DNA of 64,000 nt from Marsupella aquatica. Taxonomy: Eukaryota; Plantae; Marchantiophyta. A program made the translations under genes and the position numbers. Within the stretch, counting starts at the first letter, position 1. Each line of letters starts with the position of its first letter. The stretch covers positions 1,553,223-1,617,222 of the forward strand of contig OZ316892.1 in assembly GCA_973895155.1 (NCBI GenBank), written 5' to 3'. The notes beneath the pieces were generated by a model, which saw nothing but the letters and a program-made list of their open reading frames with translations, made no database searches and had not been told where the DNA came from. Of the stretch, positions 10,971 through 64,000 are shown in pieces.

Positions 10971-10975
10971 GAAAT

Positions 10976-19654: not shown

Positions 19655-19904
19655 TTAAAGCAGAAGCTTCCACGCCCTCCCATTCATGCCTCAATGTGCA
19701 TTTCAACGTACAAATACTGTATACTATACATTATTTGAATTTTGTTTCAATGGTCTCTTTAGAAAAAGAGAAGTTGTATAAGTTCAGTTTTGCAGTACAT
19801 ATATATTTTTGACAAAAGTATCTTAGGGGCTCTTTTGGGGCCCCCATCACATAGCTGAACATAGTTCAGCCAATAATATGTCCTGACTTGTTTGAAAGCA
19901 GGAA

Positions 19905-22816: not shown

Positions 22817-24596
22817 AGCCACGATTAAAAGGGAACGTTGGTCCTGGACCATATTTAACTAATGAATAGATCTTGAAGCTTCCAACCTGAGGTCCGTTTT
22901 AAATACCCAAAAAAAATACCCAAAAAAAAGGACTGCTACCCGGAGAGAGCGGAAACTTCGGAACTCGGCAAATAATTACTCATATCATCTGGGAGCAATT
23001 TGTTCGTAACGGAGTGTGCGGAGTGCACTTAGAAAGTTCGAGTAATCTCGAAATAACTGAGAACTCATTCATCTACGCAAACGTGTGTTTCTATCACTAC
23101 GACGAAGCCAGAGGGTCTTGCTTAGGAGCTTCAAAACCATCTCTCAATGTTTTACGTTCATTCTTCTCGGTCCTCTGGTCTGAGCCCTGAACTTATTCGA
23201 TAGTCACCTCTACTACAGATAGGGCCCTAGTACGCTAGCTATAAGCTTGAAACCACACTCACTTGTTGACGAGCACTTCTCCTGCAAGGTGAAGAGGGCG
23301 ATGGAGGAGTCGGCAAACGAAGTTGGAGAATCGGATATCCTGGCTACATAATGTCTTTTCTATAGGTCTTTGAGATTCAATCGAATTGTCCATGCAAGCT
23401 ACGCAATGTACAAGTCTACCAAAGAACTCTGGGACAGCAGCATGGTAAGATCCATTTCAGCACGACCCACAGACACAACTAGCCATCCACAGATTGACCC
23501 CAATCCTCACGGCCTTCGAGAAAATGAAGTCCTACGTGAATTTTTTGAACCACGTCATTACACTGCAAAGCATCGTCATAAACTGATGTCCTCAACGCTG
23601 AAACAACTATGTGACAGGTGATCGTCCACCGTAAACTTGGAATTCAAAGGTAATGGTCCCTTTATGTTCATTATTAAACCCCGAGAGTGAAACTTTCCGA
23701 ACCCCGCACGAACACCGATCATTTCGATGGAATTCATCTTTTCGGTGAGGGCATGCAGAGGATGGAAGAAACGAGAAAGAAGCTGAGCATGTTTTCAATG
23801 GCCCAACTTGGCAGATAAAGCAAAATCACCTCCGACATCGGCAACGTCAAAATACTACGAACACTTGCGGGCTGCGAAAAGTGGCGTCACCACACCAAAT
23901 CCATCTAATTCGACTAGGAGCCATGTAATTAAATCTCCTGACATGAAAATTATCGGGCATCTCCCATTTATCGATCCCGGAACCACTAAGAAAGTAAGAT
24001 CGGAGTCGTGAGACCTCACGAGAAATAAACCCCCGGAGCTCAGTGCCTCCTCACCCCTTCACATCAGGAAGTCTGTGTTATTGCTTCTATCACCTAAGTT
24101 TATGTTATTACTTCTAGCAGCTAAGTCTGTGTTATTGTTTCTAACAGCCGAAGGTTATTTACCACTACCCTTCCTACACTATGGTAGCTACTGCTCATTA
24201 CATGCCTTGCTTGGTATTCACGAATCGCCCTCCTGTCCCTCTTGCCCTTCTCAGAGCATGCAGGAGTCTTGAAACGTGAAGATATGGCTGGCGCTTCTTC
24301 AACCCCTTTCCTGCGGCTTCCATTTTAGCTCGTCGGACTTTTCAGACCAAGATTCGAGAGTAGCGCAGGGCCGAATTTCTCCGTTGCCATACCACAGTGA
24401 GACTATGGCAGACTGTACCTGCCTCGGTACCACCTGCCTGTGTAGCGCCTGGGGTTCGAACTCCACCGAAGCACCAGGATCTGCACCGGGACTTGGCCCA
24501 CCGGCTCGTCCACGCTGTGGAGAAAGGTGCACCGGAGCTGGGCCGCCTGTGCGTCCACCACCATGCCTGCCGGCGGAGGCCAAAGCTGCACCGGAG
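22817..24596 (+). repeat. Segmental duplicate Y (paired with 27273 to about 29100)
   Basis: Near-identical from AGCCACGATTAAAAGGGAACG for over 1.2 kb, continuing into the NF-YA-like gene. Confidence 0.9.
24198..24596 (-). pseudogene. NF-YA-like pseudogene (paralog of 28619-29302)
   Basis: [51 protein letters not shown], with an in-frame TGA and deletions. Confidence 0.8.
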
Positions 24597-24751
24597 CTCG
24601 AATTTTGGTTCGAAGAGACCAAGGAACTAAAATGGAAGCGGCAGGAAAGGGGTTGAAGAAGCGCAAGCCGTATCTTCATGTTTCGAGACACCTGCATGCT
24701 CTGAGAAGGGCAAGAGTAATGAGAGGGCGGTTCATGCATACCAAGCAAGGT
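24597..24751 (+). repeat. Inverted copy of the NF-YA core domain (pairs with about 24200-24358)
   Basis: Reads [45 protein letters not shown] on the + strand. Confidence 0.8.
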
Positions 24752-27700
24752 ATAGCCATATATATGCTCCACCATGTAGCTATCACCGTATATATGCTCC
24801 ACCATGCTCATAAGGTACACACGCCAAGGTGCGGGCCATTATCGGTTTATATGGTACCGGCAAGTTTGCATGTGGTACAGGTCCGGGTGATACCGGCATG
24901 TGTGCCTACTGGGCTTGGGCAAGTAAAGCATCGGGGGCTTGCTGCTGAATTGTTTGGATTCGCCCCTCGCAACCCTCGTCCGGGTACTAATTCAGTTATT
25001 GAATGTTCAGTGCCCCTGCACAAAATCAGGTAATAAACAGTGTCACCGTTCTAGTTAGTCTGCCAATTTCAATTTCTCGTGCTGTTGCAGGTCGACGTTT
25101 GGCTGGGAGTGTCGGCAAACGACTTGAGGCCTGGAACATAGGTCGGCCGCGATGTTGACTGCCTTTGTCTGGTATGCATTGAGTTACAATGTAGGAGTCT
25201 GAGCTAGAATTTAAAAAAAGACCTCTATAATCCATAGCAGACTAGATTTTAGCAACACTAACAAACGGAACAAGCCCGAGTTCGCAATCTGTTCAAATTT
25301 CAAATTGATATGGAAAAGATATGTACAAGAATTATGTTAGTTACAATGACGAACGAGGTCACAAGACTAGTCTGCCGAGCCACGATGAGCCACAAGATAA
25401 AATGTTCATCCACTTGTAAACTAGCCGAGGTCGATCACTCGAATCAGACCACCTCCCAGTCGAGCTCTCGTCAATGATCGAGAGCCATCGCAAACGAGTC
25501 CCGCATATACCAACAGCACTCAACTAATAGCCAGGATCGATGAAGAGAGGCCTCTCGATTACTCAAGAAAAGACACAGTGGAAAGCGCGGGGGAAAATTT
25601 GACGGATTAGAGAAAAGAGTGTAGCGTAATCCACTTCAATAACTTTCCCCGATTCCGGGCTCTTCCATAATTGCTGTGCACGTGAAGGATCAGTCGCTAG
25701 AAAACTGCTCTGATTCAGACTATTGCAAAAGCTAGGAACGATTCTTAGTGTCAAGTAATGAAGACGCGATGGGAATTGTCATTTGAAACCGCTGCTGGTT
25801 GCATGGAGTAGAAGTTGCCCAATCTCCATGCCTGACTATTCCGAGGAATGAAACCTGTTCTCCAGCCTTAAATCTCCTTGGAAACAAAAGCTGAATTAAG
25901 AACGGTGGAAGAAACCAAGGACAGTCCAAGAGCAATGTGCACGGCTGTTCTGCGAATAAGATCTAAAGAAGCTAGTACCCTAGACGAACCAATAACAATG
26001 TGAACCACACGTACACAGTACAGAGAAATAGACAGACAAACACACCTCCTACGACGAAAAGGGGCTGCGACTTGCGAGAATGCACTCCACTGGCGGGCCG
26101 GTCTTGCTCATCGAACCAGTGGATCTGCAGCGTTCCATTCGTTAATCCCATAATTGGATCACTCCAGTGTGCAGACTGGCCGGAATCCATGGCCAGCGCG
26201 GGTGAAAACTCAGGCCCTTCACTCGATTACTCTTCTTCGATCTCGAACTCCTTCAGCACTGTTCTTCGATCTCGAACCACGTCCAACCCGACACTACAGG
26301 GTTTGTTACACAAGACTCCTCACTCTGATCAGTCCAGCTCGATGCGTTCTCTCCAATCCCGTCCTCCCACAGAACTTTTCGTCCGTTCTCCAGCTTCCCA
26401 GATGCTCCCGTCGTCGGCAAATTATCATAGCTCAATCGAATCGGCCAGGTAAATCGATCAAAATTTCAGAAGCGAAAGAGAAGAGCTGATCTGAAACTCC
26501 TCCACTCCTCCGCTACCCGTCCTTGGCGTCGTCCTCTGAGCACAAGACTCGATTCAGGACTGTCTGCTGGGTTGCAGTGGCGCGCCTAGCTCCGGCCGAT
26601 CTGATCTAAACCTCGACCGTCTTGTTTCCATCACGGAGGATAACGGAGCATTGTTGCCATCGATCGACAAAGATCAGAGCAGACATAATTAGTAGCTCTA
26701 GCTCGCGCCATCACCCAAGAAAGCAAAAGTGTAATCCGTCGAATCAACGCCGTGGTCAGTTATTGAATGGATTTGAATGGCAGCACCCCACAGCAAAGAA
26801 CGATCAAAGATCACGGAGCATCAATGCCATGCATCGACAATATGACATGCAAAGTGAGTGACACAGAAATGAATGTAGAATCCCTGCATCAAAGCGAAGG
26901 GGGAACCACATCATATAGGACCCGAAGTGACACGTAATGAATGAAGAATCCCTGCATCAAAGCGAAGGGGAACCACATCATATAGGACCCCGAAGGCCAA
27001 ACCCGGGAAACACAGAAACACTAATTGGCACGACAAGTTTGCCAGCCGTGGAAAAGGCGCTGCTAAACAAACGGTCCAGCTTTGAACCAACCAAAAATGT
27101 CGGGAACAAAAAGGAAAGATGTAACGCTGTGACGCTGAAACATCAGAGACAGTCCCGCCTAACTGAAAACGACTACCCAGCTAAGCCAATCCATAACTAG
27201 GCCGTAGCTAGGAGCCAGCAGGTGTGAGAAACAGGAAGAATTGATTCCTGACAGACAGCAATCGGAGCAAAAAGCCACGATTAAAAGGGAACGTTGGTCC
27301 TGGACCATATTTACGTATGAATAGATCTTGAAGCTTCCAACCTGAGGTCCGTTTTAAATACCCAAAAAAAATACCCAAAAAAAAGGACTGCTACCCGGAG
27401 AGAGCGGAAACTTCGGAACTCGGCAAATAATTACTCATATCATCTGGGAGCAATTTGTTCGTAACGGAGTGTGCGGAGTGCACTTAGAAAGTTCGAGTAA
27501 TCTCGAAATAACTGAGAACTCATTCATCTACCCAAACGTGTGTCTCTATCACTAAGACGAAGCCAGAGGGTCTTGCTTAGGAGCTTCAAAACCATCTCTC
27601 AATGTTTTACGTTCATTCTTCTCGGTCCTCTGGTCTGAGCCCTCAACTTATTCGATAGTCACCTCTACTACAAATAGGGCCCTAGTACGCTATAAGCTTG

Positions 27701-28618
27701 AAACCACACTCACTTGTTGACGAGCACTTAATTCTCCTGCAAGGTGAAGAGGGCGATGGAAGGAGTCGGCAAACGAAGTTGGAGAATCGGATATCCTGGC
27801 TACATAATGTCTTTTCTATAGGTCTTTGATATTCAATCGAATTGTCCAACCTACGCAATGTACAAGTCTACCAAAGAATTTTGGGACCTGTAGCAGCATG
27901 GTAACTAAGATCCATTTCAGCACGATCCACAGACACAACTAGCCATCCACAGTTTGACCCCAATCCTCACGGCCTTTGAGAAAATGAAGTCCTACGTGAA
28001 TTTTTTGAACTACGTCATTACACTGCAAATCATCGTCATAAACTGATGTCCTCAGCGCTGAAACAATGTGACAGGTGATCGTCCACCGTAAACTTGGAAT
28101 TCAAAGGTAATGGTCCCTTTATGTTCATTATTAAACCCCGAGAGTGAAACTTTCCGAACCCCGCAGGAACACCGATCATTTCGATGGAATTTATCTTTTC
28201 GGTGAGGGCATGCAGAGGATGGAAGAAACGAGAAAGAAGCTGAGCATGTTTTCAATGGCCCAACTTGGCAGTAAAGCAAAATCACCTCCGACATCGGCAA
28301 CGTCAAAATACTACGAACACTTGCAGCGGGCTGCGAAAAGTGGCGTCACCACACCAAATCCATCTTATTCGACTAGGAGCCATGTAATTAAATCTCCTGA
28401 CATGAAAATTATCGGGCATCTCACATCTATCGATCCCGGAAAAATAGACCAGTGTGGACGATGGAGCCACAGTTAAGTAAGATCGGACTCGTGAGACCTC
28501 CCGAGAAATAAAACCCCAGAGCTCAGCGCCTCCTCACCTCCACATAGGTAAGTATGTTATTGTTTCAAGCATCCGCAAGGTTATTTACTACTACAATTCC
28601 TATACTATGATAGCTAAA

Positions 28619-29302
28619 TTACATTGATGCCTTGTTGCTGTTCACGAACCGCCCTCCTATTCCCCGTGCCCTTCTCTGAGCATGCAAGTGTCTTGACAAG
28701 TGAAGATACGGCCGGCGCTTCTTCGACCCCTTTCCTAACAATTCCATTTTTGCTCTTTGGTCTCTTCGGACCAAAATTCGAGAGTAGCGCAGGGCCGAAA
28801 CCCACAGGAACTCCGGAGGAATTTCTCCGTTGCCATAGCACAATGGGACTAGAGGCATTCGCGCCTGCAGGGCCCGGCGCATGACTACGGCAGGCGGTAC
28901 CTGCCTCGGTACCACCTGCATGTTGGGTGGCTGGGGTTCGAACTGCACCGGAGCTTGGCCCACCGGCGCATCCACCTGGATGTATTGCGGCTGGGGCCAA
29001 ATCTGCACCGGGGATTGGCCCACCGGCGCGTCCACCACCATGCATGCCGGCTGGGGAAAAAGTTGCACTGGAGCTTGGCTCGCCGGCGCGCCAACCACCA
29101 TGTCTGCCGGCGGAGGCCAAAACTGCACCGGAGCTTGGCGCACGGGTGCGTCCACCAGCATGCCTGCCGGCGGAGGCCAAAATTGCACCGGTGCGTCCAC
29201 CAGCATGCCTGCCGGCTGGGGTTGCACGACTGGGGCTAGTGCAACCCGAGCTTTCATAGTGTATTGTCGGTTTCTTTCGAATTCCGCCTGCAAAAAGTTC
29301 AT
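28619..29302 (-). CDS. Divergent intronless NF-YA-like protein with 20-aa Pro/Gln/Val repeats
   Basis: 227-aa ORF with RMPL, YSRILVRRDQRAK and RRPYLHLSRHLHAQRRARGIGGRF. About five xQAPVQFWPPPAGMxVDAPV repeats (60 bp each). Confidence 0.75.
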   Translation of the reverse strand: MNFLQAEFERNRQYTMKARVALAPVVQPQPAGMLVDAPVQFWPPPAGMLVDAPVRQAPVQFWPPPADMVVGAPASQAPVQLFPQPACMVVDAPVGQSPVQIWPQPQYIQVDAPVGQAPVQFEPQPPNMQVVPRQVPPAVVMRRALQARMPLVPLCYGNGEIPPEFLWVSALRYSRILVRRDQRAKMELLGKGSKKRRPYLHLSRHLHAQRRARGIGGRFVNSNKASM

Positions 29303-30588
29303 TATGCGAGAGGAGAAAGTGTGTAATCAGAAAGCTATGAAAGTGGACAAACTGTGTATATCAGAAAGTTATGAGCTCTGTTTAGGTCGAGCGGACAAAC
29401 TCTGTAATCAAAAAGTTATAGGGTTTAAACACTCAAAGTTTCAAAGTTGAATGATAAAGCAAATCACGATGAAACCACAACACAGTTCGACTTTGAAACT
29501 TTTGCTGTGATTCTAAACCGAGAATTAAATTTGGCAAACGCGGAGGGCGTTTTTACTTTTTTGGGAGAGGGGTGGGCACGCGGAGATAAGTGTGGAGCAA
29601 GGGACAAGCAGTCAAGGGGGAGGGAAAGTGCAAAGGCATGGGCCCTCCATGGCAGCCTGGGGCTGCGCAACACCTGTCCATTGCCGTGCGGGGCCCTAGG
29701 TGGCAGGGTGCCATGCAGCAAGTCTATGGGCGGTCTGCTCCAACATTGTCTCATACCGTAATTTTCACCATATTTGGCTGTATCTGGGTTACACTTTTGT
29801 CTTTTATTTCATTAATTTCTTTTCATCTACATTCCTTTCCTTTCTCCTCTTCTCTTTTCTCTCAAATTATTTCCCTTTCTCCCTCCCTTTACCCTTTGTA
29901 TTTTTGGGTTTTCCTCCCTCAATGGCATGTGCTAAGATGGTTGGTTGAAAGCTGGGGATGGCCTCCCCATCCCCTCTCTCCTGTCCACTCTTGTCCCCGG
30001 GTCTGTCTCAAAATTGGGGTGTCGGTGTGTGGAGGACTGATTAAAGCGGTGCGAAATCTGACTGTCTATTTTAGGAACTCAGCTCCCACTAACAGCATAG
30101 CATTTTAATGAAACCCTCTCTAAATCTTCTCAAATCTCACTAAGAAGTTCTGTTAATGCCCATTTAATGTTCATACATGAGTGCCAAAAGTTTTAAACAA
30201 ACAACTTACTTTCATACATTTAGAAAGACAAATATTGATCATAACTCCATGCAATTTTTCTAGTACACAACTCTTTCATTTATATAAGATAAAACAAAAC
30301 ATAGCACCATGCAAGTCAAAAGTTGTCAAGTACTCAACTTTTCCATTCATGAAAAAACAGATTTAAATCAATACACCCTCTAATACACCAATTGATAACA
30401 CCAAGCACCCTAAAGACACAGGCGGCAACAGTATTCCATATCATTCTGACCCTACCAGTGGGGTCAAAGTTGCACCGCTCATGTACTTAGTCACAGCCGG
30501 AGGGTTGCACGACTGAAATAGGAGGCCTACACTCTGCTTTACCCCCGCAATCTATTCTATCCTTTCACTGCAAAGGTTTTGGGGACTC

Positions 30589-30947
30589 TGTCATGCCGAG
30601 GGACAGTGCCTCTTATGCACATCGGCATGTCCCTCGCCTGCCCGCTAGGTATGTAGTTAGGGCTAGTGTACTACCTGAGTTAGCGACATGTTCTTGTAGC
30701 AAGTCTGGGCCATTGTTGAAGCAAATGTGCTTGTTAGTGTGACGCCAGGACTTTGCTTGCTTAGGGCATGTCTTTCTTTGTGGGTTTTTCAGTTCTTCTT
30801 GAATCGTTGTTGACAGAGCTCAGACAATGCTCGTCGGTTCCGTACACGGGATTCACACAGTGATTCGTTAGATGCTCCCGGCCGATCTTGGCATCCTGCC
30901 GGTTTTCGATTCGATTTCAGTACAATTGTTTCTCTTACGCCTTTTAT
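30589..30947 (+). repeat. Terminal repeat A1 (359 bp)
   Basis: Direct repeat of 39817-40175 (about 4 substitutions seen) and of 58868-59225. Confidence 0.95.
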
Positions 30948-31409
30948 TCAAGAAGAACTCGTCGAGATAGTGGTGAGGGGAAGAAGATTGCTTGTGACGA
31001 TTTTGACACTTTTTGGTGAAGCCATTGCAATTTCTTTTACGGACATCGGAGTGACAAGTTAAAAGTTATGGGTTTATTGTGGTGTTATGTGTATACTTAA
31101 GTGTATACACATAACAAGGGGCCCGGATTTTTTTCCCCGGCCGCAACCTTCTTTGTGACCTACATCGACGACTTGCTGCCGACTGCACAGGCCGCTGCGC
31201 CCTCGCTCGCGACCCTTTGGGAGTTCAGGGCCCCTTTTTCGTTAGCTTTTATGGCCATTTCCCGGCCACGGCTGCCGCGCGACTACTTCCCGACGGCATA
31301 GGGCCGCGCGCCCCTTTTCTTTTTGCCTTTCTTACTCGTCTTTTTTTTGCCTCGTCGCCTTGCTATTCCTTCGTTTTGCTTCCTACCGTGGCCGAGCATA
31401 AGCGAGAGA

Positions 31410-31850
31410 GGATGGAGGGCACGAGGCCCTATGGCGCATTAAGAGGAGGGGAGGGGAGTACACATTAAAGCAGGGGGAGTCTCCTGCAGGGCACAGAGCC
31501 CACTGTCAGCATTCAAGGGGAGGGGGAGTTGAAGCGAAAGCAGGGCACGAGGCCCTAGGCAGCTCTGAAGCATTAAAGAGGGGGGGAGTACATTCGACTC
31601 CCTCTCTCGGGAGTCCTCCTGCAGGGCACGAAGCCCTTAATTCAGCTTTAAAGAGGGGGGGGAGTACTCGCGACTCCTCTCTCGGGAGTCCTCCTGCAGG
31701 GCACGAAGCCCTTAATTCAGCTTTAAAGAGGGGGGGGAGTACTCCCAACTCCTCTCTCGGGAGTCACTCGCTGCCAGGGCACAAGGCCCAAAAGGGGGAT
31801 AGGGGGAGCTCATAGTGGGGCACGAAGCCCTATGCAGGGCCCGAGCCATT
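31410..31850 (+). repeat. Hairpin-rich tandem repeats (about 75-bp unit) in the retroelement 5' leader
   Basis: Repeated AGGGC-ACGA(A/G)-GCCCT and GACTCC-tctctc-GGGAGTC motifs with G-runs. A similar array lies at 59870-60250. Confidence 0.75.
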
Positions 31851-34800
31851 AAGTTGTCACCTCGCCTCAGCCTCGCCTCGCCCTGCAGCATAGGGTACCG
31901 TGCCTCCCGAGTGTGCGTACACCTGCTTCTTTCCGGCCTCTTTTTCTTCCAGGGAGCCCGACGATGTATCCACATTGGGTACCGACCGGTACCCTTTATG
32001 TGTATACACAGACCCCTGTCTATACACATCGGAGGCCCCTTTTGGCCATTTCCTCTTGTTTCTTTCCATTCATTTTCTTGTGAGCATATTTTCGGCAGGG
32101 CCGGTCTACACATTTCTGCCTCGCAGTGTTGTTTCCTTTGTGGGTTACATTTCATAGCCTTGGGGTTGCCACACCTTTTTCTTGTCAGTTTCTTTCCTAT
32201 TGGCACCCCGGGTGAGCATGCAGCATGTCAGCAGAGGAGCCGAGTCGTAGCAGCTCATCGCCACCGACACCCCGGTACCACTTACGGAGTGATCCACGAC
32301 CGTTGGTGCCAATTTCATTGGAGTCTCGGCAATTTCGACGACGTCCGCAGACAGCAGCAGCACCCACACCACGCAATCCTCCTGCTACATTTGGCGGTCG
32401 CTTCACCACTACTCCGAAGCCTGCTATCACTTCATTGCCATTTACCCCTTCTGCATCAGTGGTTGTTCCTGCTTCACCGACATACAGCATGGATGCCAGC
32501 CACTCATCTGGCCGCATTGAGTGCTTCAGCGGGCGGCCAGGCACTGTCTCTTTACGTGAGTTCAAATCCACTTTCTACACTGTCGTTTACGAATTGGAGT
32601 TGAAGTACGGCAGCAATTTCACAAATGCGTTTGCATTTAAGCAGCTAGCCAGGTATGTGCACCATGAGGCTTTAGATGTGTATGAGCAGCACTCTCAACG
32701 GCTGCTTGCTGTCACACAGTTGCCTAACCCTACCTATGCCAGTGCAATTGCGGCAGCTTCACAATTGGCCTTACAAAATGCCATTGCAGCCCATGCTGCT
32801 ACTCCTGCCACTTCCCCTCCTACTCCAGTTCCTACCACTGCGCCCGTTACTCCCACTGTCTTGGCACAGGCTACATCAGGCATTTCTCCCACCATTGATT
32901 CCCTTGCCTTTGCTGATCCAGTGGCTGAGTTTTTCCAGGTTCTTGAATTGGAATTCCCAATCAAGAGTGCTGACAAAATCATGCAGTTGGCCACCTTTGT
33001 GAGGCAGCGCGATGAAACCTTGAAGATGATGTATCGCCGGCTTCTCAAGCTGAAGGAGGACACCCAGAGCATCACTGACCTGGAAGCTGCTCATCGCTAT
33101 CTTCGCGCATTGGAGGGCACACCAGCTCTCCATTCGCAAGTGTTGCAGCAAGTATTCTCAGAGTTTGGAGACAACTACACCCTGCTCAATGTCTATGACA
33201 CTGCTGAGAAACTTGAGTTGGCCCATGCACATTATGAGGCCAGTATTGCGCGTCCACCGCGATCCAGGTACCAGGCTGCTGCCCCTACACTGGCCACCCC
33301 TTCCCGAGTGCCACAGTATGGTTCCAAGACCAAGCCAGCCCATGTTGCTTTCATGCTGCCATCTTGCAACTACTGTGGTAACCCCAATCACAAAGGCTAA
33401 TGAGTGTGATATTGTTGCTGAGGACCTGTCTTGTGATTTTTGCGGGAAAGTGGGTCACTTGGAGGCAGTTTGTTTTGCCAAATTCCCAGAGCGGAAGCAG
33501 CTACGACAACAGGCCCCTCATCCTACTCCTGCTTCCACTCCCCCACCAGCTAGGAGGGCTCCTACTGCATCAGTTGCTCCTCCTTCCAATGGCAAAGCAA
33601 CCAGTGCCAACAAATTGCCTAAGCAACCACAGAAGCAACCCGCTCAGAAGGAGGCTCACAACGCACAGGCAACTCAACTCCAGTCTCTGACTCATGAGGT
33701 TGAGTCCTTACGTGCCCAACTTGCCAACATCAAAGGCAAGTCCACTGCCTCTGCTGGTCCTTCTCAACCGGCTGGTCACGTGCAACCCATCCCTAGCCCA
33801 GGCACCGCTGACAGTTCAGCACCTCTACCCCGCTCTTTCTATGGCTTACCATTTGATGCTCATATGGGTGAGTGTGTGCTGTCCTCTGCTCCACAACCTG
33901 GCCTTACAGCAGAATTTTCAGATTCATTCTGCCCTTCCCTATTTTGCTTACCAGCAGGCCAGTGCTGCCTCCCGTATTGCTCCCACACGCCGCATTGTAC
34001 AGGCTGATGGTCTTGCTGCCGGTCCTCTGACTAGAGCCAGGGGCGCTCGGGCTGTCATGCCCCAATCTTTTCAGCCACTCACACTTGCTGAAGAGCGCAC
34101 CTTGTTGGCGAGGGGGGAGGGAGCTGCAGCTACATCCATTCCACCACCAGGTGCTGCTGACATTTCACAGGGAGTTGTTTCTCCTGAGCTGCTTGAGCAT
34201 TTCACCTCCGGTATGGCACAAAGGATTCTTATATCTCCACTTTTCAGTTGCCATGATTTACAGCTGGATGCTAGAGCTGTCATCAGAGCGCTAGAGGGCT
34301 CACTACATTCTTCATCAGCCCCTGTGACACCGGTTTTGGAGGTCCAATCTCATGTACATACTGGACCTTTTTCTTCTCCTTTACATGTTCCCACTGGTTT
34401 GGCTACCCCAATACCGATTGCTGCTGATTGTGTGACCAGAGCTACACTTGATTCTGGTCATGCTGCTCCATCTTTCCTGGCTATGTTGTTGAGTGGAAAG
34501 ACCGTGGACACTAACTCCCTTCACAAGGTACCTCATCATTTGCCAAGAGTGGTGCCTAGTGACAGGACTTCAGTTTCCACCACCATTGCCATTGTTGACA
34601 ACAGGAATTCAGTGGTCAAGTTGGAGGGTCACACTCCTCAGGTGGTCATGCTAGACACAGGTGCTCAACCAGTGATATTGGGCATTCAATTTGCCAAGAA
34701 GATGGGACTGTTGACTGATCATTTACAGCAATCCAAGTGGCACATTCGGACTGCTAGTGGCACTGTGGAGGATGTGCTGGGTGAGAGTTCTACTTTACTC

Positions 34801-35316
34801 ACTCTCACTTTTAATGGAGGTACAGACCAGGAACTGCATTTCCCAGTCAGATGTTTGGTTACCAATGTCACTACGTATGATGTGCTCATTGGCCAGGAGG
34901 CTTTGTTCCCACCAGGTTTTACCATTGACAACTGGCATGAGCATGCATACTACAGAGTTGATTGGCATACTGATGGCTCACACTTGGGCTACATTCCACT
35001 TGATTTGCATGGTGCCCATACACCTATGGCTCACCACTGTGTGTTGAAAGCAGTGCACACAGCTACCTATGTCAACCACCCATTGCAAGATTGGATTGAG
35101 GAGGATGACGATGAGGTGGCTGCTGTACATGCTGCTGCACGTATAGCAGCACTTTCCAGCAACGTGGATCATCAACCAGAGGTGGTACAACGGCTCCAAG
35201 CAGCCCATGGACCTTTGGTGGCTACATTGCGCAAGTTTGAAGACCTTGGGCAGCACAATGGACAGCCAATAGCCCCAATCTTGAGCGCACCAGTTAAATG
35301 GACTCCTCCTTCAGAT

Positions 35317-36307
35317 GGCCTTACATTGCTTGAGCTTTTTGGTGACATTTCTACAGGCCTGGAAGCTCTCCTACAGTCTGGCATGGTGGTGAAGCAGTAC
35401 ATCTACGTGGACATTGATCCAAGTGCAAGGCAAGTGGCTGAATCCCGTCTGCTGGAATTTTCCGAGCGATTTCCCCAGCAGTTTCCACATAGTGCATGGA
35501 AGTCTGCATTTTCTTTCTTCCCTCCAGACATCCAGCTTGTCCAGCATCGGCACTTAACCCTTCTTGGCTCCCTTGATTTGATCATAGCTGGTTGGGAATG
35601 CCAACGGTTTTCAGCTGCTGGTCACGGTGCTGGACTGCATGATTCTCGTTCTGGCCTTTTCACAGCATTGGTTCAGATTCTCACCTGGGCTCAATTCCTT
35701 TATCCTGCTGTTGGTTATATCATTGAGAATACTCCATCTCAGTTTGACCAGCGTCCACAGGTCAAAGAGGATTTCAGTGTGGTCCACCACTACTTGGGAC
35801 CACCCCTTCTCATTGATGTAGTGCATTGTGGTTCTTATGCACATCATCTTCGTAACTTTTGGACTAACCTTGCACCACCTTCCTACTTTAGCTCTTCACC
35901 ACACATCCAGGGACACTAACCTCATAGTGGACCAGATTTTGGATCCTGACAGTTCTTGCCAACCGGTTACACGGCAAGAGCCAGCACCTTGGTATCCACT
36001 CGGGTATCCAGCTAATACCATTGGACAGCCCCGTGCTGCTTGGCCTACTTTTGTGTCCTTTCCATGTGCACATGCTTTTCAAGGTGATGGTCCTGGCCTG
36101 GTTTATCGACATTCTACCGGTACATGGGATGAACCTAGTCCTGAGGAGAGAGAACGGGCTATGGGCTTCCAACCCGGTACTACAGGTCACACCAAAATCA
36201 CCAGACTGGCCAGGATTGCTTTACTTGGCAAGGTAATGGATCTTAATGCTCTCACTTGGCTTCTGGTCACTTGCATCCTTTTTCAGATGTACATTCATCC
36301 AGCATAA
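35317..36307 (+). other. C5-cytosine DNA methyltransferase domain inside the polyprotein
   Basis: Motif I LELFG(D/G)ISTG, II YVDID, IV DLIIAGWECQRFSAAG (Cys retained) followed by GLHDSRSGLF, VI IIENT, VIII AHHLRNFWTN, IX EPSPEERERAMGF, X RIALLGKVMD. Confidence 0.88.
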
Positions 36308-39300
36308 GGAGTGCCAGCCCTACCACTCCATGGTGCTGCTACATGGCATCCAGACCAGGTGCACTTACCTCTGTCCAACACTCACCACTTCAGTCCAAGT
36401 GTTGGGGGGAGGAGGTCCCTTGTAATGTGGCTGACATTATTTCTGAGTTTCATGGTGTGGATCAGACCAGAGCAACAGATACAGCAGGCCTTGGAGTGGC
36501 CTCATCACCTTATCAGCAGCATGCTAGCAGCTTGGACAGTGGAGAGGCTGGCACTTCTGGCTCTTCAAGCACGAGTACATCAGGTCCTATTCCTAGTGTT
36601 GCCAACTACACATTCATCATGGGCAACCACCTGAGTTAAAGACAGAAGGACCAGCTGCTGAATTTGCTCCTCAAGCATGAGAATGTGTTTGCTTTCTCTA
36701 TGAAGGACTTGGGTAAGTGCAAGACTATGCAATTCTCCATTGAGTTGGCTGATGAAACACCTATCTTTAGGCGGAGACACCATTTGAGTAAGCATGAGTG
36801 GCAGCTGGTGGATGAGAGATGCCAAGAGCTCTATGAAGCTAGTCTTATTCAGCCATCTACATCAGATTTTGCAGCAGCTACAGTGATGCCAGCAAAAAAG
36901 GATTCTAGTGGATTGTGGACAAAGAAGCGCATGTGTGGGGACTACAGGCCACTGAACCTGGTCACACCCCAAGACAGGTACCCCATGCCACGACCAGAGG
37001 AGCTATTTGACAGCATTGGAGACTCAGACATCTTCACTCTTGTGGATCTAAGGCAAGGCTTTAACCAGATTTTGCTGCTTGCAAAGGACCGCAAGAAAAC
37101 AGCTTTCCATGGTAGTAAACAACTATGGGAGTGGTTGGTGATGCCATTTGGCTTGAAGAATGCGCCCATATTCTTTCAAAGAGTCATGGACCAGGTTCTT
37201 CAAGGTGCTGAGTTTCTGAAATGCTACATTGATGATGTGTTGGTCCATAGCAAAGGATTTGACCAGCATCTACTTGACCTTGAGGAGCTATTCATGAGGC
37301 TTAAGAAGGTGAACCTAAAGATACACCCCAAGAAGTGTGAATTTGCTGTCAGATCAGTAGTATACCTTGGGCACCGCATTCTTCCAAATGGAACCATGGC
37401 TCACTGGGCCAAGGTGGTATCCATCTTGGAAATGCCCACCCCTACCGATGTTCACACTTTGAGGAGTTTTATTGGGTTGTGCAATTACTACCGGATCTAC
37501 ATCAAAGATTTCAGTACCATTGCACACCCATTGTATGCTTTGTTGAAAAAGAATGTGACTTGGACATGGAGTACAGATGCTGAGGCAACATTTGCCACTT
37601 TGAAGGAGAAGCTCTCAGAATACCCAGTGCTGAGAAGACCTGATTTCAGCAAGGTCTTTGTGCTACACACAGATTGGAGTGCCCTTGGGATTGGTGCCAT
37701 TCTGGGCCAGCATGATGAGGAAGGTAAAGAGTACGTCATTGCCTATGCATCCAGGAGCAACAATCAGGCAGAGAGTCATTATTCTTCTTATGAGGGTGAA
37801 TGCCTTGCTGTTGTGTGGGCTGTCATACATTATAGGCCCTACCTCTATGGGACCAGGTTTGTTCTCTACACCGACCACCAGCCCTTGAAGTGGTTGATGA
37901 CCAATGACAAGCTTACTGGCAAGCTTGCTCGTTGGGCGCTCATACTCCAGGAGTATGATTTTGAGGTAATTCATAGGCCTGGTGTGACACATCAGAATGC
38001 TGACACTATGTCCCGCAGCCCTTTGATTACCTCTGATGATTCCTCAGATGCACGGCAAGATTTTGACCAGGTTTCCATCCTGCCTACATTTCATGCATCG
38101 ACCTATCTTGCTTTGCTGCCATGCTATGTTGTTGACCAACCTGTGGTGGACATATGGGAGGATAGCGACACTCTGAGATTTCTGCAGCATGGGGAGTACC
38201 CCACACATGTTACTGCTGCCCAGAGAGACCAAATTCAGCAAAGGTCCAAGCGCTACTTGTGGAAGGGAGATCATCTCATGCGCTGCTTGCCAGACAGGGA
38301 AGTGGTGGTTCCACCCATTCATGAGAGGGTTGGCCTTATCCGTAAGGTACATTCTGAGCTTGGTCATTTTGGCGTTAAGAGGACTTACAGCCTCTTGGTC
38401 CCTCATTATCATTGGAGAGGCATGCATGGCCAGGTTCGAGATGTTATTGCCCGGTGTGAACAGTGTGATAGGGTGAGGACTTCTTTCACATCTCGGCAAC
38501 CCACACTTCATCCACTCCCTATTCAGGGCATGTTTTATCGCTGGTCATGTGATTTGGCTGGAGAATTACCCCTCACATCTCGGGGTAATCTCTACATCAT
38601 GATCATGATAGAGCATTTCTCCAAGTGGATAGAACTTGTGGCATTGCCGGATAAGACCTCCCGTAGCACCAGCCAGGCATTCCTGCAACAAGTTCTCAGC
38701 CGCTTTGGAGCTTGTGCAGAATGTCTCACTGACCAGGGCTCAGAGTTTAGAGGAGAGTTCCAGGAGCTGCTTGATCAGGCCCTCATTGATCATCGCCGGA
38801 CATCACGAGATCACCCACAGGCAGATGGCTTGGCAGAGCGCATGGTTCAGACATGCAAGAAGGGTCTCCGGAAGATCTGCCTCACCAAAAACAAGGAGGA
38901 TTGGGACCTGGCCTTACCCTACATTGCCATGGGGTATAGGATGTCCAGACATGCATCACTGTCTAACTTTTCTCCCTACTTCTTGTTGTTTGGTCGTCAC
39001 CCAGTTCCACCTTCTGCTATTGCTGCTCACATGCTTCAGGTGGTGGACTTGGATTCAGCTGTGACTTGGTCTGATGTGATCTCTGAGAGGGCTGCCCTAT
39101 TCAGGAGGGTTATGCCCATGGCCATGGAGAATTTGGCCATTGCACAACACAGGGACATACTGCGTTATGCACACACACGAGGGGGCACTTTTTAGCCCAA
39201 GGTCAGGAAGTTTGATGTGGGAGATTTTGTGTACTTGCAGCGGCAAGCTAACGACACCCTGGACACCTCTACCAGTCGTACTATTCTCAGGGTTAAAGCT

Positions 39301-39438
39301 ATTCGACCGTCTGGAGTGCTAGAGTTACAAGGGGCAGATGGGCGCACAATTGCTGACAATGCCAAGAACTGCGCCCCTTGTCATCTGCCTAACCTAGATC
39401 CCACCATTGTGACTTCTACTTGGATTCCACCTGTGGAC

Positions 39439-39597
39439 TACCCTTGCAAGGTGTGTTTGCGAATTGATGATGCTGACCAGATGCTGCTGTGTGACAATTG
39501 CAATGGAGGGTACCATCTTTTCTGCCTTCGGCCTGAACTTACCCAGGTGCCAGAAGGGTTATGGTTTTGCCCTTCTTGTGCTCCACGTGCTACCTGA
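39439..39597 (+). other. PHD finger at the integrase C-terminus
   Basis: CKVC..DDADQMLLCDNCNGGYHLFCLRPELTQVPEGLWFCPSC (C4HC3 pattern). Same frame as pol beyond one premature TAG. Confidence 0.9.
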
Positions 39598-39638
39598 ATT
39601 TTCTTCAGCCCTTCTTTTGGCTGTGGTCTGGGGGGGGG

Positions 39639-40351
39639 ATACAGAGGTTTACACCTCCACTACGTACATACCACTTCATTTGCTTTTTCTTGGCACTTGT
39701 GAATGTGATTGGACTTTTTCTATGCATGTTGGTTGCTAGCAGCTTGCACATATGCCTTGCCGGTGACTTGTATGTTTTTGATACACTATGGCTACGATAC
39801 TATATGTCACGACAGCTGTCATGCCGAGGGACAGTGCCTCTTATGCACATCGGCATGTCCCTCGCCTGCCCGCTAGGTATGTAGTTAGGGCTAGTGTACT
39901 ACCTGAGTTAGCGACATGTTCTTGTAGCAAGTCTGGGCCGTTCTTGAAGCAAATGTGCTTGTTAGTGTGACGCCAGGACTTTGCTTGCTTAGGGCATGTC
40001 TTTCTTTGTGGGTTTTTCAGTTCTTCTTGAATCGCTGTTGACAGAGCTCACACAATGCTCGTCGGTTCCGTACACGGGATTCACACAGTGATTCGTTAGA
40101 TGCTCCCGGCCGATCTTGGCATCCTGCCGGTTTTCGATTCGATTTCAGTACAATTGTTTCTCTTACGCCTTTTATATACAGAGGTTTACACCTCCACTAC
40201 GTACATACCACTTCATTTGCTTTTTCTTGGCACTTGTGAATGTGATTGGACTTTTTCTATGCATGTTGGTTGCTAGCAGCTTGCACATATGCCTTGCCGG
40301 TGACTTGTATGTTTTTGATACACTATGGCTACGATACTATATGTCACGACA
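39639..40351 (+). repeat. 3' terminal repeat block B1-gc-A2-B2
   Basis: B (176 bp, ATACAGAGG...CACGACA) occurs on both sides of A2. A G9 tract sits immediately before B1. Confidence 0.95.
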
Positions 40352-40363
40352 ACTCTACCCCCG

Positions 40364-40482
40364 GCCTTCAACCGCTTCTTATGATCTTGTGTGATTCTTT
40401 ATGTTAAAAGGAGGCATTATCCGCCTTCAACCGCTTCTTATGATCTTGTGTGGTTCTTTATGTTGAAAGGAGGCATTATCCA
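40364..40482 (+). repeat. Two-copy tandem duplication (about 59 bp)
   Basis: CCTTCAACCGCTTCTTATGATCTTGTGTG...GGAGGCATTATCC occurs twice. Confidence 0.85.
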
Positions 40483-40932
40483 CCTCTGTTCATCATCACA
40501 ACCATTTCCAAAAACGAGTGTTAGTCGCACTTCACAGGGCTCAAGCATTTACTATTCTTTGTAAGGGTGAGGCAGTTGTCTAGAGTAGCTAGTCAGGTTC
40601 CTTTGTTAGATCCCTTTTGCATCACCCAGCTCTACCAGGCTCTACACTTTGCCATAGGTAGGGTCTTAGGCCCTTTGCTCCTTGTTGGCTTAGTGGTGGG
40701 CATTGCTTCTGGTTGTTTGGGCTTTCTGGCTAATTCGTTGCCACCCCTTATTTGGAATTCCTCATGTGAGATCCTCTCTCTTGTTTGGGCGCCTCGTGCT
40801 TCTTCGCAGTCTGATATATATAGTGTTGCTCTGTTTCTCCTAGTCTGAAGAGAAGCTATGGTTTTTAGTGTTGCCCCGTTTCCGTAGTGTGAAGAGAAGC
40901 TATGGTTTAAGCAGGATCGGCCAGTTGAGAGC

Positions 40933-58867: not shown

Positions 58868-61800
58868 TGTCATGCCGAGGGACAGTGCCTCTTATGCACA
58901 TCGGCATGTCCCTCGCCTGCCCGCTAGGTATGTAGTTAGGGCTAGTGTACTACCTGAGTTAGCGACATGTTCTTGTAGCAAGTCTGGGCCGTTCTTGAAG
59001 CAAATGTGCTTGTTAGTGTGACGCCAGGACTTTGCTTGCTTAGGGCATGTCTTTCTTTGTGGGTTTCCAGTTCTTCTTGAATCGCTGTTGACAGAGCTCA
59101 GACAGTGCTCGTCGGTTCCGTACACGGGATTCACACAGTGATTCGTTAGATGCTCCCGGCCGATCTTGGCATCCCGCCGGTTGTCGATTCGATTTCAGTA
59201 CAATTGTTTCTCTTACGCCTTTTATTCAAGAAGAACTGTGTGGTGAGAGGAAGAAGATAGGAGACATTCTCGTTTCAGCTGCTTAAGTTGGTACATACAA
59301 TTTCCGTCGAAGCCGGTGCAATTTCTTTGAGCAGCATAGGAATGGCGGGTTAAGAGTTATGGGTTTTAATGTAGTGCTATGTGTATAAGTATACACATAA
59401 CATCGCCGTTTGAGTCCGTGCTTTGTTCCCGGCTACATTTGTGACCCCTTTCTGCTATGTGCTCCTTCTTACTGTCACTGCCGCTTGCTGCCTCGACTGC
59501 TTTTGGGGTCATTTTTGCATTCCCGGCCACGGCTGCCGGCGAGTTTCCCTTGACTACCGCGCGATCACCTCGCGACTACCTCCCGAGCGCACAGAGCCAC
59601 GGGTCCGTTTGCTTTTTGCCTTTTTCCGGTCGCGACCTGCTGCCACCCAATTTTTCTTCCCGGCCATCGTTTCTTCTCGACTTCTCGCCTTCCCTCGCAG
59701 TTATTGTCGCGAGCTTGGGCCCTGGGTATACACATGCGGGGCTCATCATTGCCCCTGGGTCACGCATAGGGCCGTGCGCCCTCCCTTCGGCATTTTTTTT
59801 CTTCCTCCCTCGCTTGTTGCCAGCAATTACACAGTAGGGAAGGGGGATTAAGTTTAGGCATAAGCATGGAGAGGGCACGAGGCCCTATTCTGCATTAAAG
59901 CAGGGGCAGGGGGGAGCCAAGTACAAGCGAAAGCAGGAAGGAGGGGGACCGAGTGTTAGGAGAGGGCATGCAGCCCTATGTTGCATTAAAGGCCCTAAGC
60001 AACATTGAAGCAGGGGAGTACATTCGACTCCTCTCACAGGAGTCTTTTGCAGGGCACGAAGCCCATAAAGCAGCATTAAAGAGGGAGGAGGGGGAGTACA
60101 CTCGACTCCCTTCCCTTCGGGTACACTGTCACCAGGGCACGAGGCCCAATTTCATTAAGGAGGGGAGGGGGAGCTCGTAGCTTCCCTTCGGAAGCTCTTA
60201 AGGTGGGGCACGAAGCCCTATGGGGGGGCTCATGCCATTAAAGAGGGCCCGGTTTGGCCCGGTTTCTTTCGCCTCGCCTCCCGCATGTCTCTCTTTTCTT
60301 TCAGCCGTCGTCTTTCCTCCCGCCTCACAACGACCTGCATAGGGCCTCCATGGGCTGTGCATAGGGCGCCGTGCCCTGGGTGTGTTTACACACTCGGCCG
60401 GTTCCTGTGAGGACGATTTTGCTGCTGACGCGCGCCTGGCCTCTTTTCTGTCGAGCTTGCCAGTTCCCGGGTCCACATCGGGCCCCGACATATACACTTA
60501 ACGGGGTCCCATGTTTATACACTTAATTAAAGGGGCGCCCAATGTCTTCACGTTTTTAAGGGTCCTTTTTCTCTGACGGATTTTCGACGTTGACGGTTCT
60601 TCAACGTATTTACACATTTGGTACATTACCTGAGTACATCGGGTACTGCCACACAGCATGTCAGCAGACGAGCCGGGAAGTAGTAGCACATCGCCACCGA
60701 CACCCAGGTACGATTTACGGAGTGATCCACGACCATTGGTGCCAATTTCATTGGAGTCTCGGCAATTTCGATGACGTCCACAGACAGCAGCAGCACCCAC
60801 ACCATGCAATCCTTCTGCTCCATTTGGCGGTCGCTTCACCACTACTCCCAAGCCTGCTATCACTTCATTGCCATTTACCCCTTCTGCATCAGTGGTTGTT
60901 CCTGCTTCACCGACATACAGCATGGATGCCAGCCACTCATCTGGCCGCATTGAGCACTTCAGCGGGCGGCCAGGCACTGTCTCTTTATGTGAGTTCAAAT
61001 CCACTTTCTACACTGTCGTTTACGAATTGGAGTTGAAGTACGGCAGCAATTTCACAAATGCATTTGCATTTAAGCAGCTAGCCAGGTATGTGCACCACGA
61101 GGCTTTGGATGTGTATGAGCAGCACTCTCAACGGCTGCTTGCTGTCACACAATTGCCTAACCCTGCCTATGCCAGTGCAATTGCAGCTGCCTCACAATTG
61201 GCATTACAGAATGCCATTGCAGCCCATGCTGCTGCTCCTGCCACTTCCCCTCCTACTCCAGTTCCTACCACTGCGCCAGTTACTCCCACTATCTTGGCAC
61301 AGGCTACATCAGGCATTTCTCCCACCATTGATTCCCCTGCCTTTGCTGATCCAGTGGCTGAGTTTTTCCAGGTTCTTGAATTGGAATTCCCAATCAATTC
61401 AAGAGTGCTGACAAAATCATGCAGTTGGCCACCTTTGTGAGGCAGCGCGATGAAACCTTGAAGATGATGTATCGTCGGCTTCTCAAGCTGAAGGAGGACA
61501 CCCAGAGCATCACTGACCTGGAAGCTGCTCATCGCTATCTTCGTGCATTGGAGGGCACACCAGCTCTCCATTCGCAAGTGTTGCAGCAAGTATTCTCAGA
61601 GTTTGGAGATAGTTACACCTTGCTCAATGTCTATGATACTACTGAGAAACTTGAGTTGGCCCATGCACATTATGAGGCCAGTATTTCGCGTCCACCGCGA
61701 TCCAGGTACCAGGCTGCTGCTCCTACAATGGCCACCCCTTCCCGTGTGCCACAGTATGCTTCCAAGACCAAACCAGCACATGCTGCTTTCATGCTGCCAT

Positions 61801-64000
61801 CTTGCAACTACTGTGGCAATCCTAATCACAAGGCTAATGAATGTGATATTGTTGCTGAGGACCTGTCTTGTGATTTTTGCAGGAAAGTGGGCCACTTGGA
61901 GGCAGTTTGTTTTGCCAAATTCCCAAAGAGGAAGCAGCTACGACAACAGGCCACTCATCCTGCTCCTGTTTCCACTCCCCCACCAGCTACGAGGGCTCCT
62001 ACTGCATCAGTTGCTCCTCCTTCCAGTGGCAAAGCAACCAGTGCCAACAAATTGCCTAAGCAACCACAGAAGCAACCCGCTCAGAAGGAGGCTCACAACG
62101 CACAGGCAACTCAACTCCAGTCTCTGACTCATGAGGTTGAGTCATTACATGCCCAACTTGCCAACATCAAAGGCAAGTCTATTGCCTCTACTGGTCCTTC
62201 TCAACCGGCTGGTCACGTGCAACCCATCCCTGGCCCAGGCACCACTGACAGTTCAGCACCCCTACCCCGCTCTTTCTATGGCTTGCCATTTGATGCTCAT
62301 ATGGGTGAGTGTGTGCTGTCCTCTGCGACACAGCCTGGCCTTACAGCAGCATTTTCAGATTCATTCTGCCCTTCCTATTTTGCTTACCAGCAGGCCAGTG
62401 CTGCCTCCCGTATTGCTCCCACACGCCGCATTGTACAAGCTGATGGTCTTGCTGCTGGTCCTATGACTAGAGCCAAGTGAGCTCGGGCTGTCATGCCCCA
62501 ATCTTTTCAGCCACTCACACTTGCTGAAGAGCGCACCTTGTTGGCGAGGGGGGAGGGAGCTGCAGCTACATCCATTCCACCACCAGGTGCTGCTGACATT
62601 TCACAGGGAGTTGTTTTTCCTGAGCTGCTTGAGCATTTCACCTCCGGTATGGCACAAAGGATTCTTACCACTCCACTTTTCAGTTGCCATGATTTACAGC
62701 TGGATGCTAGAGCTGTCATCAGAGCGCTAGAGGGCTCACTACATTCTTCATCAACCCCTGTGACACCGGTTTTGGAGGTCCAATCTCATGTTAATACTGG
62801 ACCTTCTTCTTCTCCACTGCATGCTTCCACTGGTTTGGCTATCCCAGTACCGATTTCCAGTGGTAGAGATGACAGTATTGCTACAGATTGTGTGACCAGA
62901 GCTACACTTGATTCTGGTCATGCTGCTCCATCTTTCCTGGCTATGCTATTGAGTGGGAAGACCATGGACACTAACTCCCTTCACAAGGTACCTCATCATT
63001 TGCCAAAAGTGGTGCCTAGTGACAGGACTTTAGTTTCCACCACCATTGCCATTGTTGACAACAGGAATTCAGCAGTCAAGTTGGAGGGTCACACTCATCA
63101 GGTGGTCATGCTAGACACAGGCGCTCAACCAGTAATCTTGGGCATTCAGTTTGCCAAGAAGATGGGATTGCTGACTGATCATTTATAGCAATCCAGGTGG
63201 CACATTCGGACTGCTAGTGGCACTGTGGAGGATGTGTTGGGTGAGAGTTCTACTTTACTCACTCTCACTTTTAATGGAGGTACAGATCAGGAACTGCATT
63301 TCCCAGTCAGATGTTTGGTTACCAATGCTACTACGTATGATGTGCTCATTGGCCAGGAGGCTTTGTTCCCACCAGGTTTTACCATTGACAACTGGCATGA
63401 GCATGCATACTATAGAGTTGATTGGCATACGGATGGCTCACACTTGGGATACATTCCACTTGATTTGCATGGTGCCCATACCCCTATGGCTCACCACTGT
63501 GTGTTGAAAGTAGTGCACATAGCTACCTATGTCAACCACCCATTGCAGGATTGGATTGAGGATGAGGTGGCTACTGCACATGCTGCTGCACGTGTAGCAG
63601 CACTTTCCAGCAACGTGGATCATCAACCAGAGGTGGTACAACGGCTCCAAGCAGCCCATGGACCTTTGGTGGCTGCATTGCACAAATTTGAGGACCTTGG
63701 GCAGCATAATGGACAACCAATGCCCCCAATCTTGAGCGCACCAGTTACCTGGACTCCTCCTTCAGATGGCCTTACATTGCTTGAGCTTTTTGGTGGCATT
63801 TCTACAGGCCTGGAAGCTCTCCTAAAGTTTGGCATGGTGGTGAAGCAGTACATCTATGTGGATATTGATCCAAGTGCAAGGCAAGTGGCTGAATCCCGTC
63901 TGCTGGAATTTTCAGAGCGATTTCCTCAGCAGTTTCCACACAGTGCATGGAAGTCTGCATTTTCTTTCTTTCCTCCAGATATCCAGCTTGTCCAGCACCG
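58868..64000 (+). mobile_element. Second copy of the MTase-carrying Gypsy-like element (5' part; runs past the window end)
   Basis: Begins with repeat A (58868-59225) and no B. Gag from about 60658, protease MLDTGAQ near 63110, MTase motif I LELFGGISTG near 63780. Has stops and frameshifts. Confidence 0.92.

Follow-up and report, generated by a model that had tools for sequence, protein, structure and literature searches.

How does a retrotransposon with a DDE integrase come to end in split direct repeats? The question is raised by an element at 30585..40355 of a 64,000-nucleotide stretch of the liverwort Marsupella aquatica (assembly GCA_973895155.1, contig OZ316892.1, positions 1,553,223 to 1,617,222, forward strand; hereafter the window), which carries a repeat A alone at its left end and the series B-gc-A-B at its right. 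Split direct repeats of the form A1-B1-A2-B2 characterize PAT, TOC1, Kangaroo, Ngaro and VIPER, which the consulted sections of one source class as tyrosine recombinase retroelements (PMC4157794). We report that the element is a real and family-wide Ty3/Gypsy retrotransposon. From sequence comparison we propose that its inserted form is probably a circular permutation of the predicted complementary DNA (cDNA), produced when the integrase cuts a palindrome inside the repeat and the raw cDNA tips are joined by the host.

A Ty3/Gypsy element with split direct repeats

The layout had been read in an earlier note, made from the letters of the window, as A...G9-B-gc-A-B with TGTCATG and CACGACA ends and an ACTC target-site duplication (TSD), all of which match base for base; the internal CACGACA-gc-TGTCATG junction with its 2-bp spacer, also described there, is present (Table 1). 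Between A1 and A2, 4 of 359 sites differ; B1 and B2 are identical over all 176. A second copy begins at 58868 with A alone and continues with the same sequence, as the note had stated: its A equals A2 at 353 of 358 aligned sites, TCCG lies directly upstream, and the 12 nucleotides (nt) after A (TCAAGAAGAACT) are those of the first copy, followed by sequence divergence.

The coding content places the element among Ty3/Gypsy retrotransposons. Pol has the order protease, reverse transcriptase (RT), RNase H, integrase, and its best solved relative is Ty3 Gag-Pol (E 1.6e-91), with the next polyprotein at 1.8e-52 and retroviral RTs behind. The integrase is of the DDE type, the RT is closest to Ty3, the ends are TG..CA and the TSD falls in the range of 4-6 bp. 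In place of two identical long terminal repeats (LTRs) bounded on the inside by a primer binding site (PBS) and a polypurine tract (PPT), the PBS adjoins A alone and the PPT precedes B, and the family layout is A...B-gc-A-B or A...B. The DDE integrase without a visible recombinase noted earlier is borne out: the rve core was found, and none of the 8 element frames of at least 150 amino acids or the 21 shorter frames of at least 90 amino acids matched a tyrosine recombinase family in Pfam. Relatives with open frames retain the DDE integrase.

Three features had been overlooked in the earlier note, namely the self-priming site treated below, a Dnmt3-like methylase domain and a C-terminal PHD finger. 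All eight PDB matches of the methylase domain are DNMT3A, at weak significance (E 0.003), and the domain is 42% identical to the protein P0019. A Pfam search of the gag-like region (32216..34007) returned no match. Among the 120 homologues listed of 1854 found, the named ones come chiefly from Calypogeia, Riccia, Klebsormidium and Closterium; PF00628 is present in many and PF00145 in four. The nearest named RT among the matches listed is from the liverwort Calypogeia fissa.

The near-identical repeats mark a young insertion, yet the coding region (32216-39597) has several frame breaks and two in-frame stops; either the copy was mobilised in trans from a broken parent or the assembly contains errors. 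The leader (30960-32200) is the variable part of the family, with tandem units of ~75 bp at 31475-31789. It resembles that of the second copy only in patches of 70-87%, compared with 98% for A and 94% for gag-pol, and its run depth is much below that of the rest of the element.

Table 1 Features of the element and of its second copy in the window.
Feature	Position	Strand	Basis or remark
Left 4-bp TSD, ACTC	30585..30588	+	Sequence
Repeat A1, left end of inserted element, begins TGTCATG	30589..30947	+	359 bp; differing flanks upstream of 30589 in run X3
Predicted self-primer (12 nt, up to 14 nt paired) and transcript start	30791..30802	+	Exact complement of 30948-30959
Predicted self-priming PBS, without TGG	30948..30959	+	Kept in second copy and run contigs, then divergence
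Gag-like region, two CCHC knuckle motifs, several frames, broken here	32216..34007	+	Translation
Aspartic protease	34615..34905	+	PF13975 E 1.8e-6
Dnmt3-like C5 cytosine methyltransferase domain, split over two frames	35323..36304	+	PF00145 E 1.3e-5
RT and RNase H	36901..37956	+	PF00078, PF17917, PF17919
Integrase: H2C2 finger, rve core	38314..39192	+	PF17921, PF00665; D..D-35-E read in translation
C-terminal PHD finger, beyond an in-frame stop in the window copy	39445..39579	+	PF00628 E 8.7e-13
G9 PPT, predicted plus-strand primer	39630..39638	+	G-rich tract also precedes B1 in relatives
Repeat B1, predicted cDNA LTR start, ends CACGACA	39639..39814	+	176 bp
Internal junction CACGACA-GC-TGTCATG, intact imperfect palindrome, predicted integrase cut site	39808..39823	+	2-bp spacer in relatives; GC joint in runs
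GC spacer	39815-39816	+	Between B1 and A2
Repeat A2, predicted end of cDNA LTR	39817..40175	+	
A2/B2 joint, predicted join of raw cDNA ends	40175/40176	+	
Repeat B2, right end of inserted element	40176..40351	+	
Right TSD, ACTC	40352..40355	+	
Second copy: A alone 58868-59225, PBS 59226-59237, divergent leader, gag-pol 94% identical	58868..64000	+	Continues past window edge

Predicted self-priming from within repeat A

The pairing between the putative PBS and the stretch inside A reaches 14 nt when the last two nucleotides of A are counted, and of 20000 25-mers drawn at random from the window, 3 match A equally well. In relatives with unrelated repeats the two partners co-vary, with letters changed on both sides and the pairing kept in three sequence families: AGTTTTTCTAGA with TCTAGAAAAACT in the main group, AGTTCTTCGAA with TTCGAAGAACT in L045 and GTTCTTTGAG with CTCAAAGAAT in L051. 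Among the 20 loci with a TATA box, 17 have at least 11 of the 12 bases paired (in one of them at another site), compared with 1 of 20 control positions. The primer in these relatives mostly starts 31-34 nt (~32) downstream of the TATA box. The best fold of the window's predicted 5′ RNA includes the 14-bp stem, and the predicted 5′ RNA of the relative L014 is stabler than its shuffles (z -3.83).

Self-priming is described for the Ty3/Gypsy elements Tf1/sushi and plant Tcn1 in the portions of three papers used here (PMC7175516, PMC4600332, PMC6317226), one of which, in the part consulted, takes a complement of at least 10 nt at the start of the internal region as its sign (PMC6317226); the window element has 12-14 nt. 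This complementarity is a signature of Tf1-type self-priming, which we predict for the element. Priming by a tRNA was rejected on the missing TGG alone, and there is no tRNA gene within the window. Because the PBS directly follows A and the purine tract directly precedes B1, the LTR as defined by reverse transcription would be B-gc-A, and A1 would comprise the end of U3, R and U5 of the cDNA LTR. The suggestion of the earlier note that the cDNA repeat is B+A primed at the G tract is thereby supported, with the minus-strand primer site giving the second boundary.

The A repeats of relatives carry several TTTAGGGTT telomere-like motifs upstream of the conserved TATA box (alignment of L001-L078), and the window's A has TTAGGG motifs and lacks the TATA box.

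Insertions begin and end inside the predicted LTR

We compared contigs of four public runs with 30300-39830 and 39817-40800 and used the best-supported rows of each comparison. The joint of A end and B start is present in all four runs and that of B end, GC and A start in three of the four, which answers a concern that B-A-B might be an assembly artefact. Unlike flanks precede the A start (30589) in 12 contigs of run X3, and varied flanks follow the B end in 5 to 16 contigs in X2, X3 and X4 (8 in X2 and 11 in X3 in the comparison with 30300-39830). Behind the A end, the primer site alone appears among the rows listed. Because the flanks of run contigs begin at the A start and the B end, these are the family's ends, and they lie in the middle of the repeat defined by reverse transcription. 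Loose ends before the B start are few and mixed (3-4 contigs per run, agreement ~0.6), and a few may be flanks of conventionally inserted copies. By a rough figure, internal contigs in run X3 are ~80-110 times deeper than the single flank.

The census of relatives comprises 81 loci, 80 kept from 555 metagenome loci and one distant viral locus. Blastn with the window's A and B gave zero matches among relative loci of at least 6 kb, and the relatives were for this reason typed with their own repeats. Purine tract and B are present in 34 rows, of which 18 (16 distinct) read B-A-B and 13 (11 distinct) B only; two more end at a contig edge after B-A and one is rearranged. At the 5′ side, 24 rows contain A, and after removal of one duplicate and one truncated row all 22 distinct intact ends show flank and then A alone, with no case of the A-B-A isomer (0/22). 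The layout is thus a family architecture, as the note had supposed, and not an accident.

CA and TG are separated by 2 bp in 19 of 19 relatives, the spacer reading GC or mostly the transition products of GC. Ten loci retain both ends; two of them have exact TSDs and two match at 3 of 4 positions, so that four of the ten reach at least 3 matches against 8.3% by chance (p 0.007), two B-only copies being included. The 4-bp duplications, in the window and in relatives, are of unrelated target sequences. At 7608-7918 of L024, the 5′ end of one copy is inserted within pol of another family member.

In a FastTree phylogeny of 166 RT rows, midpoint-rooted and built without named Gypsy clade references, a single clade of 129 rows (SH-like support 100) contains all A...B-type copies. 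Within it, B-A-B copies are present in two RT subclades whose repeats are unrelated in sequence, and the B-only copies are dispersed, requiring 8 changes for 11 rows. Four chromodomain proteins and five loci with a single repeat pair lie outside, the 'LTR pair' label of these five resting on one self-match each. No age difference between B-only and B-A-B copies was found (p 0.15). Comparing A1 with A2 within one element, subfamily indels agree in 6 of 6 cases (two marks) and a tandem unit differs in 3 of 6; this comparison has no power to separate the models discussed below.

The joint between A and B varies

Main-group loci all keep the A end intact where the primer site follows (21 of 21), whereas 5 of 14 do so at the A/B joint (Fisher p 3e-5). 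The nine altered joints have lost 1-3 nt, three of them via a shared AT, or carry an added or exchanged base (T, G or C); the primer site opens with T, and the purine tract closes with G. Joint forms with -2 and +T occur in the window's own family as minor variants among run contigs. In L006 (7558-15084) one of the two breakpoints of an internal inversion coincides with the A end, and the second lies close to the B start, which is ~14 nt short; this is a single case in which mis-assembly is possible. The A/B joints look like end-joined cDNA tips.

Cleavage of an internal palindrome as the proposed route

The directly visible layout, ends, domains, complementarity, fixed 2-bp spacer and variable A/B joint would fit the following cycle. 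The RNA would run from ~30791 to a poly(A) site in A2. The minus strand would be self-primed at 30948 and the plus strand primed at the G tract, giving a linear (B-gc-A)-internal-(B-gc-A) cDNA. Integrase would then cut the upstream copy of the CA-gc-TG palindrome and not the DNA tips. A 2-nt staggered cut after each CA would leave two recessed CA-3′ ends with 2-nt 5′ overhangs, a geometry with the same structure as processed retroviral ends; the upstream site would be selected, perhaps as its repeat becomes double-stranded first. Host end-joining of the raw tips (A end and B start) would give A-internal-B-gc-A-B, with the GC lost and a 4-bp target duplication, and the final B would be dispensable for the next cycle. 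Copies of the A-internal-B form might arise from one-repeat circles, by B-B homology repair or through later B-B recombination, and would be dead ends.

Two orders of events can be envisaged. The tips may be joined before insertion, with integrase loaded on the upstream site before the circle closes. Alternatively, insertion may come first, with the host closing the break by end-joining (giving B-A-B) or through B homology (giving B only). We hold the two to be almost evenly balanced.

Several observations weigh against the proposed route. The cDNA, its circles, the transcript ends and the integrase activity are all deduced from sequence, in which no feature accounts for exclusive use of the upstream site (0/22 A-B-A ends). 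No TATA box stands at the expected position in the window's own A, and the 5′ RNA predicted for the window copy is overall no stabler than shuffles (z -0.27). At the boundary of PPT and B, the homopolymeric G tract hides indels, leaving a clean control on the A side only. The variety of A/B joints may be partly inherited or due to later decay, the loci being old (~85% alike), and the short-read assemblies behind the joint counts can be chimeric. Six of the ten two-ended loci have at most two target matches; two of these have decayed B ends, and L014 and L041, also among the six, have clean ends but no duplication.

Alternatively, RT itself could make the A/B joint, its plus strand running off the A end and jumping to the B start to yield run-on linear DNA. 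The integrase would then use palindromes 1 and 3 (A...B-A-B) or 1 and 2 (A...B) as separate ends, and no host ligation would be needed. Both the missing A-B-A ends (0/22) and the B-only class (11/27) would be accounted for in this way. In two families the A ends have AT in common with the B starts, 3 of 14 joints make use of it, and Tf1 RT shows end-clamping. The fixed spacer argues against such a jump, because separate half-sites would not need it and would leave its length free, yet it measures 2 bp in every relative scored (19/19), in families with unrelated repeats. Moreover, a distant family (L045, L069) has no shared terminal letters and yet clean joints, and the commonest joint (5/14) retains both ATs. 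We consider this origin unlikely.

A symmetric two-repeat circle, opened equally at either palindrome, would produce A-B-A...B as often, which would have to collapse to A...B via recombination between the A repeats. The near-equal numbers of B-A-B (16) and B-only (11) copies, and the scatter of the latter over the RT tree (8 changes, 11 rows), speak for it. It would require that all A-B-A ends have collapsed while B-A-B persists. Both window copies, one of them young, start with A alone, and the B-only class is not clearly the older one (p 0.15). That A-B-A ends are absent, against 16 B-A-B loci, means that the two palindromes are not equivalent, so that a freely opened circle is too simple, and we regard this model as very unlikely. 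Of the circularly permuted LTR mechanism suggested in the earlier note, the making of ends at the internal B/gc/A site stands, and the free two-repeat circle, with no A-B-gc-A...B among 22 ends, does not.

The identical A1-B1-A2-B2 layout of PAT, Ngaro and TOC1, as given in the consulted sections of PMC4157794, suggests a third route: an end-to-end A-internal-B-A-B RNA whose B-A joint templates a circle junction, with a tyrosine recombinase acting in trans. The absence of a recombinase match in the element's frames of at least 90 amino acids and the DDE integrase kept in open relatives leave it with very little probability, as do the TG..CA ends, the 2-bp spacer loss and the fact that the 4-bp duplications are of unrelated sequence. 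Moreover, the A end and the B start are exactly where the primer site and purine tract lie, and the A/B joint varies as if remade. That the layout stems from faulty assembly or from an isolated rearrangement of an ordinary LTR element, as the several breaks in the window copy's coding region might hint, is practically excluded by both joints in run contigs and by 16 distinct loci in two RT subclades with unrelated repeats.

Cleavage of the internal palindrome may extend beyond this family. For the whole clade, taken to span liverworts, other early land plants and streptophyte algae, we lean towards the view that the integrase site has moved from the cDNA tips to an LTR-internal palindrome, that junction cleavage and host end-joining have become obligate, and that split repeats arose without a tyrosine recombinase. 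If true, this would break the rule that integrases of LTR elements act on linear cDNA tips, and would offer a natural system for junction cleavage as the main route, long debated for retroviral 2-LTR circles. A circle junction that serves as precursor of integration, which is a side path for retroviruses, would in this clade be the standard life cycle, and ordinary LTRs would have a path towards the split direct repeats seen in recombinase elements. Standard LTR-pair finders are predicted to miss or mis-bound such abundant elements.

Relation to known elements and junctions

Cleavage at the junction of a retroviral 2-LTR circle, of which foamy virus is reportedly a further case, offers a likeness to the proposed cut. 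In the parts of the cited studies drawn on here, HIV-1 integrase cuts abutted-end junctions in vitro (PMC1905944), and 2-LTR circles are made by non-homologous end joining and re-opened (PMC4372172). A DDE integrase acts there too on a palindromic abutted-end junction, and the cDNA tips are end-joined; the difference is that the retroviral cut site consists of the joined tips and belongs to a side path, whereas in the window element the site would be encoded inside the repeat and the joined tips would remain in the inserted copy. Bacterial copy-out/paste-in insertion sequences of the IS256, IS3 and IS30 families likewise integrate from an abutted-end junction with a short spacer, according to the relevant section of PMC7780238. 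Their transposase makes the junction from DNA, whereas that of the window element is predicted to be copied through RNA.

The A...B-A-B layout in a Gypsy element is already in print. KnitGypsy-Dnmt3 of Klebsormidium nitens (de Mendoza et al. 2018) combines DIRS-type repeats (A-coding-B-A-B) with Gypsy domains in the legend of Fig. 4c (PMC5890265) and is a real precedent, sharing with the window element the Gypsy domain set, a Dnmt3-type methylase in Pol and the repeat order. The article's main text, as far as consulted, describes no ends, target duplication, primer sites or mechanism for it (PMC5890265). Three K. nitens proteins, which may or may not belong to KnitGypsy-Dnmt3, lie in the same 129-row RT clade. 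A literature search found the layout only in PMC5890265 and the mechanism nowhere; subscription papers, Repbase and the supplementary figures of PMC5890265 lay outside its reach, and a prior description is possible. What appears new here is the self-primer complement inside A, the LTR that would be B-gc-A, and the insertion ends at its internal CA-gc-TG palindrome, together with the mechanism that we infer from them. Dnmt3-carrying Gypsy elements are extended from Klebsormidium to, likely, land plants.

With Tf1, sushi and Tcn1, as described in the portions cited above, the element shares a primer site right after the repeat, complementary to 11-12 nt inside it and lacking a tRNA-type TGG. These are chromoviruses with LTR pairs, whereas the window clade has a PHD finger and no chromodomain match, its inserted ends are not those defined by reverse transcription, and the four chromodomain proteins lie outside it. 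The split direct repeats of PAT, TOC1, Kangaroo, Ngaro and VIPER (PMC4157794, in part) are the likeness to that group; the window element differs in its DDE integrase, TG..CA ends, 4-bp duplication and LTR-type primer sites, and in having no recombinase match.

The earlier note had also raised Troyka (Kojima 2025), which shares a Gypsy-like domain order and is characterized in the accessible part of its description by CG..CG ends, a 3-bp duplication, LTRs at both ends and a host range confined to animals (PMC12440569). Ends, duplication length and host range all differ, and membership is excluded by the TG..CA ends, the 4-bp TSD and the named relatives in liverworts and streptophyte algae. Gypsy-7a_cRei of Chlamydomonas, an active Gypsy element with a PHD finger, has a left LTR that is short of the last 8 bp of the right LTR in the section that treats it (PMC9940879); this difference could be a minimal form of the same permutation.

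Other features of the window

A 59-bp tandem duplication (40364-40485) lies immediately to the right of the element. An ordinary Copia element on the minus strand (3966-10970) has two 345-bp LTRs that are 98% alike, TG..CA ends and a 5-bp duplication GAAAT, and so gives an example of a regular LTR pair within this window; at ~1198-1549 there is a related solo LTR in reversed orientation. The region 10944-13017 holds a Plant_tran/DDE_Tnp_4 frame on the plus strand and a NAM-associated frame on the minus strand, which we take to be a likely PIF/Harbinger-type DNA transposon. Nested inverted repeat arms (75-98% alike) at 13392-21679, centred near 17500, form a decayed 8-kb fold-back. A tandem duplication within 18592-29135 (22817-24598 against 27273-29135, and 18592-19654 against 26134-27272) carries an NF-YA domain and 60-bp coding repeats. 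Also present are tandem arrays with units of ~62 bp at 45354-45811 and of 234 bp at 50448-51543, together with frames for a BTB domain (46476) and for mTERF (54091-55698).

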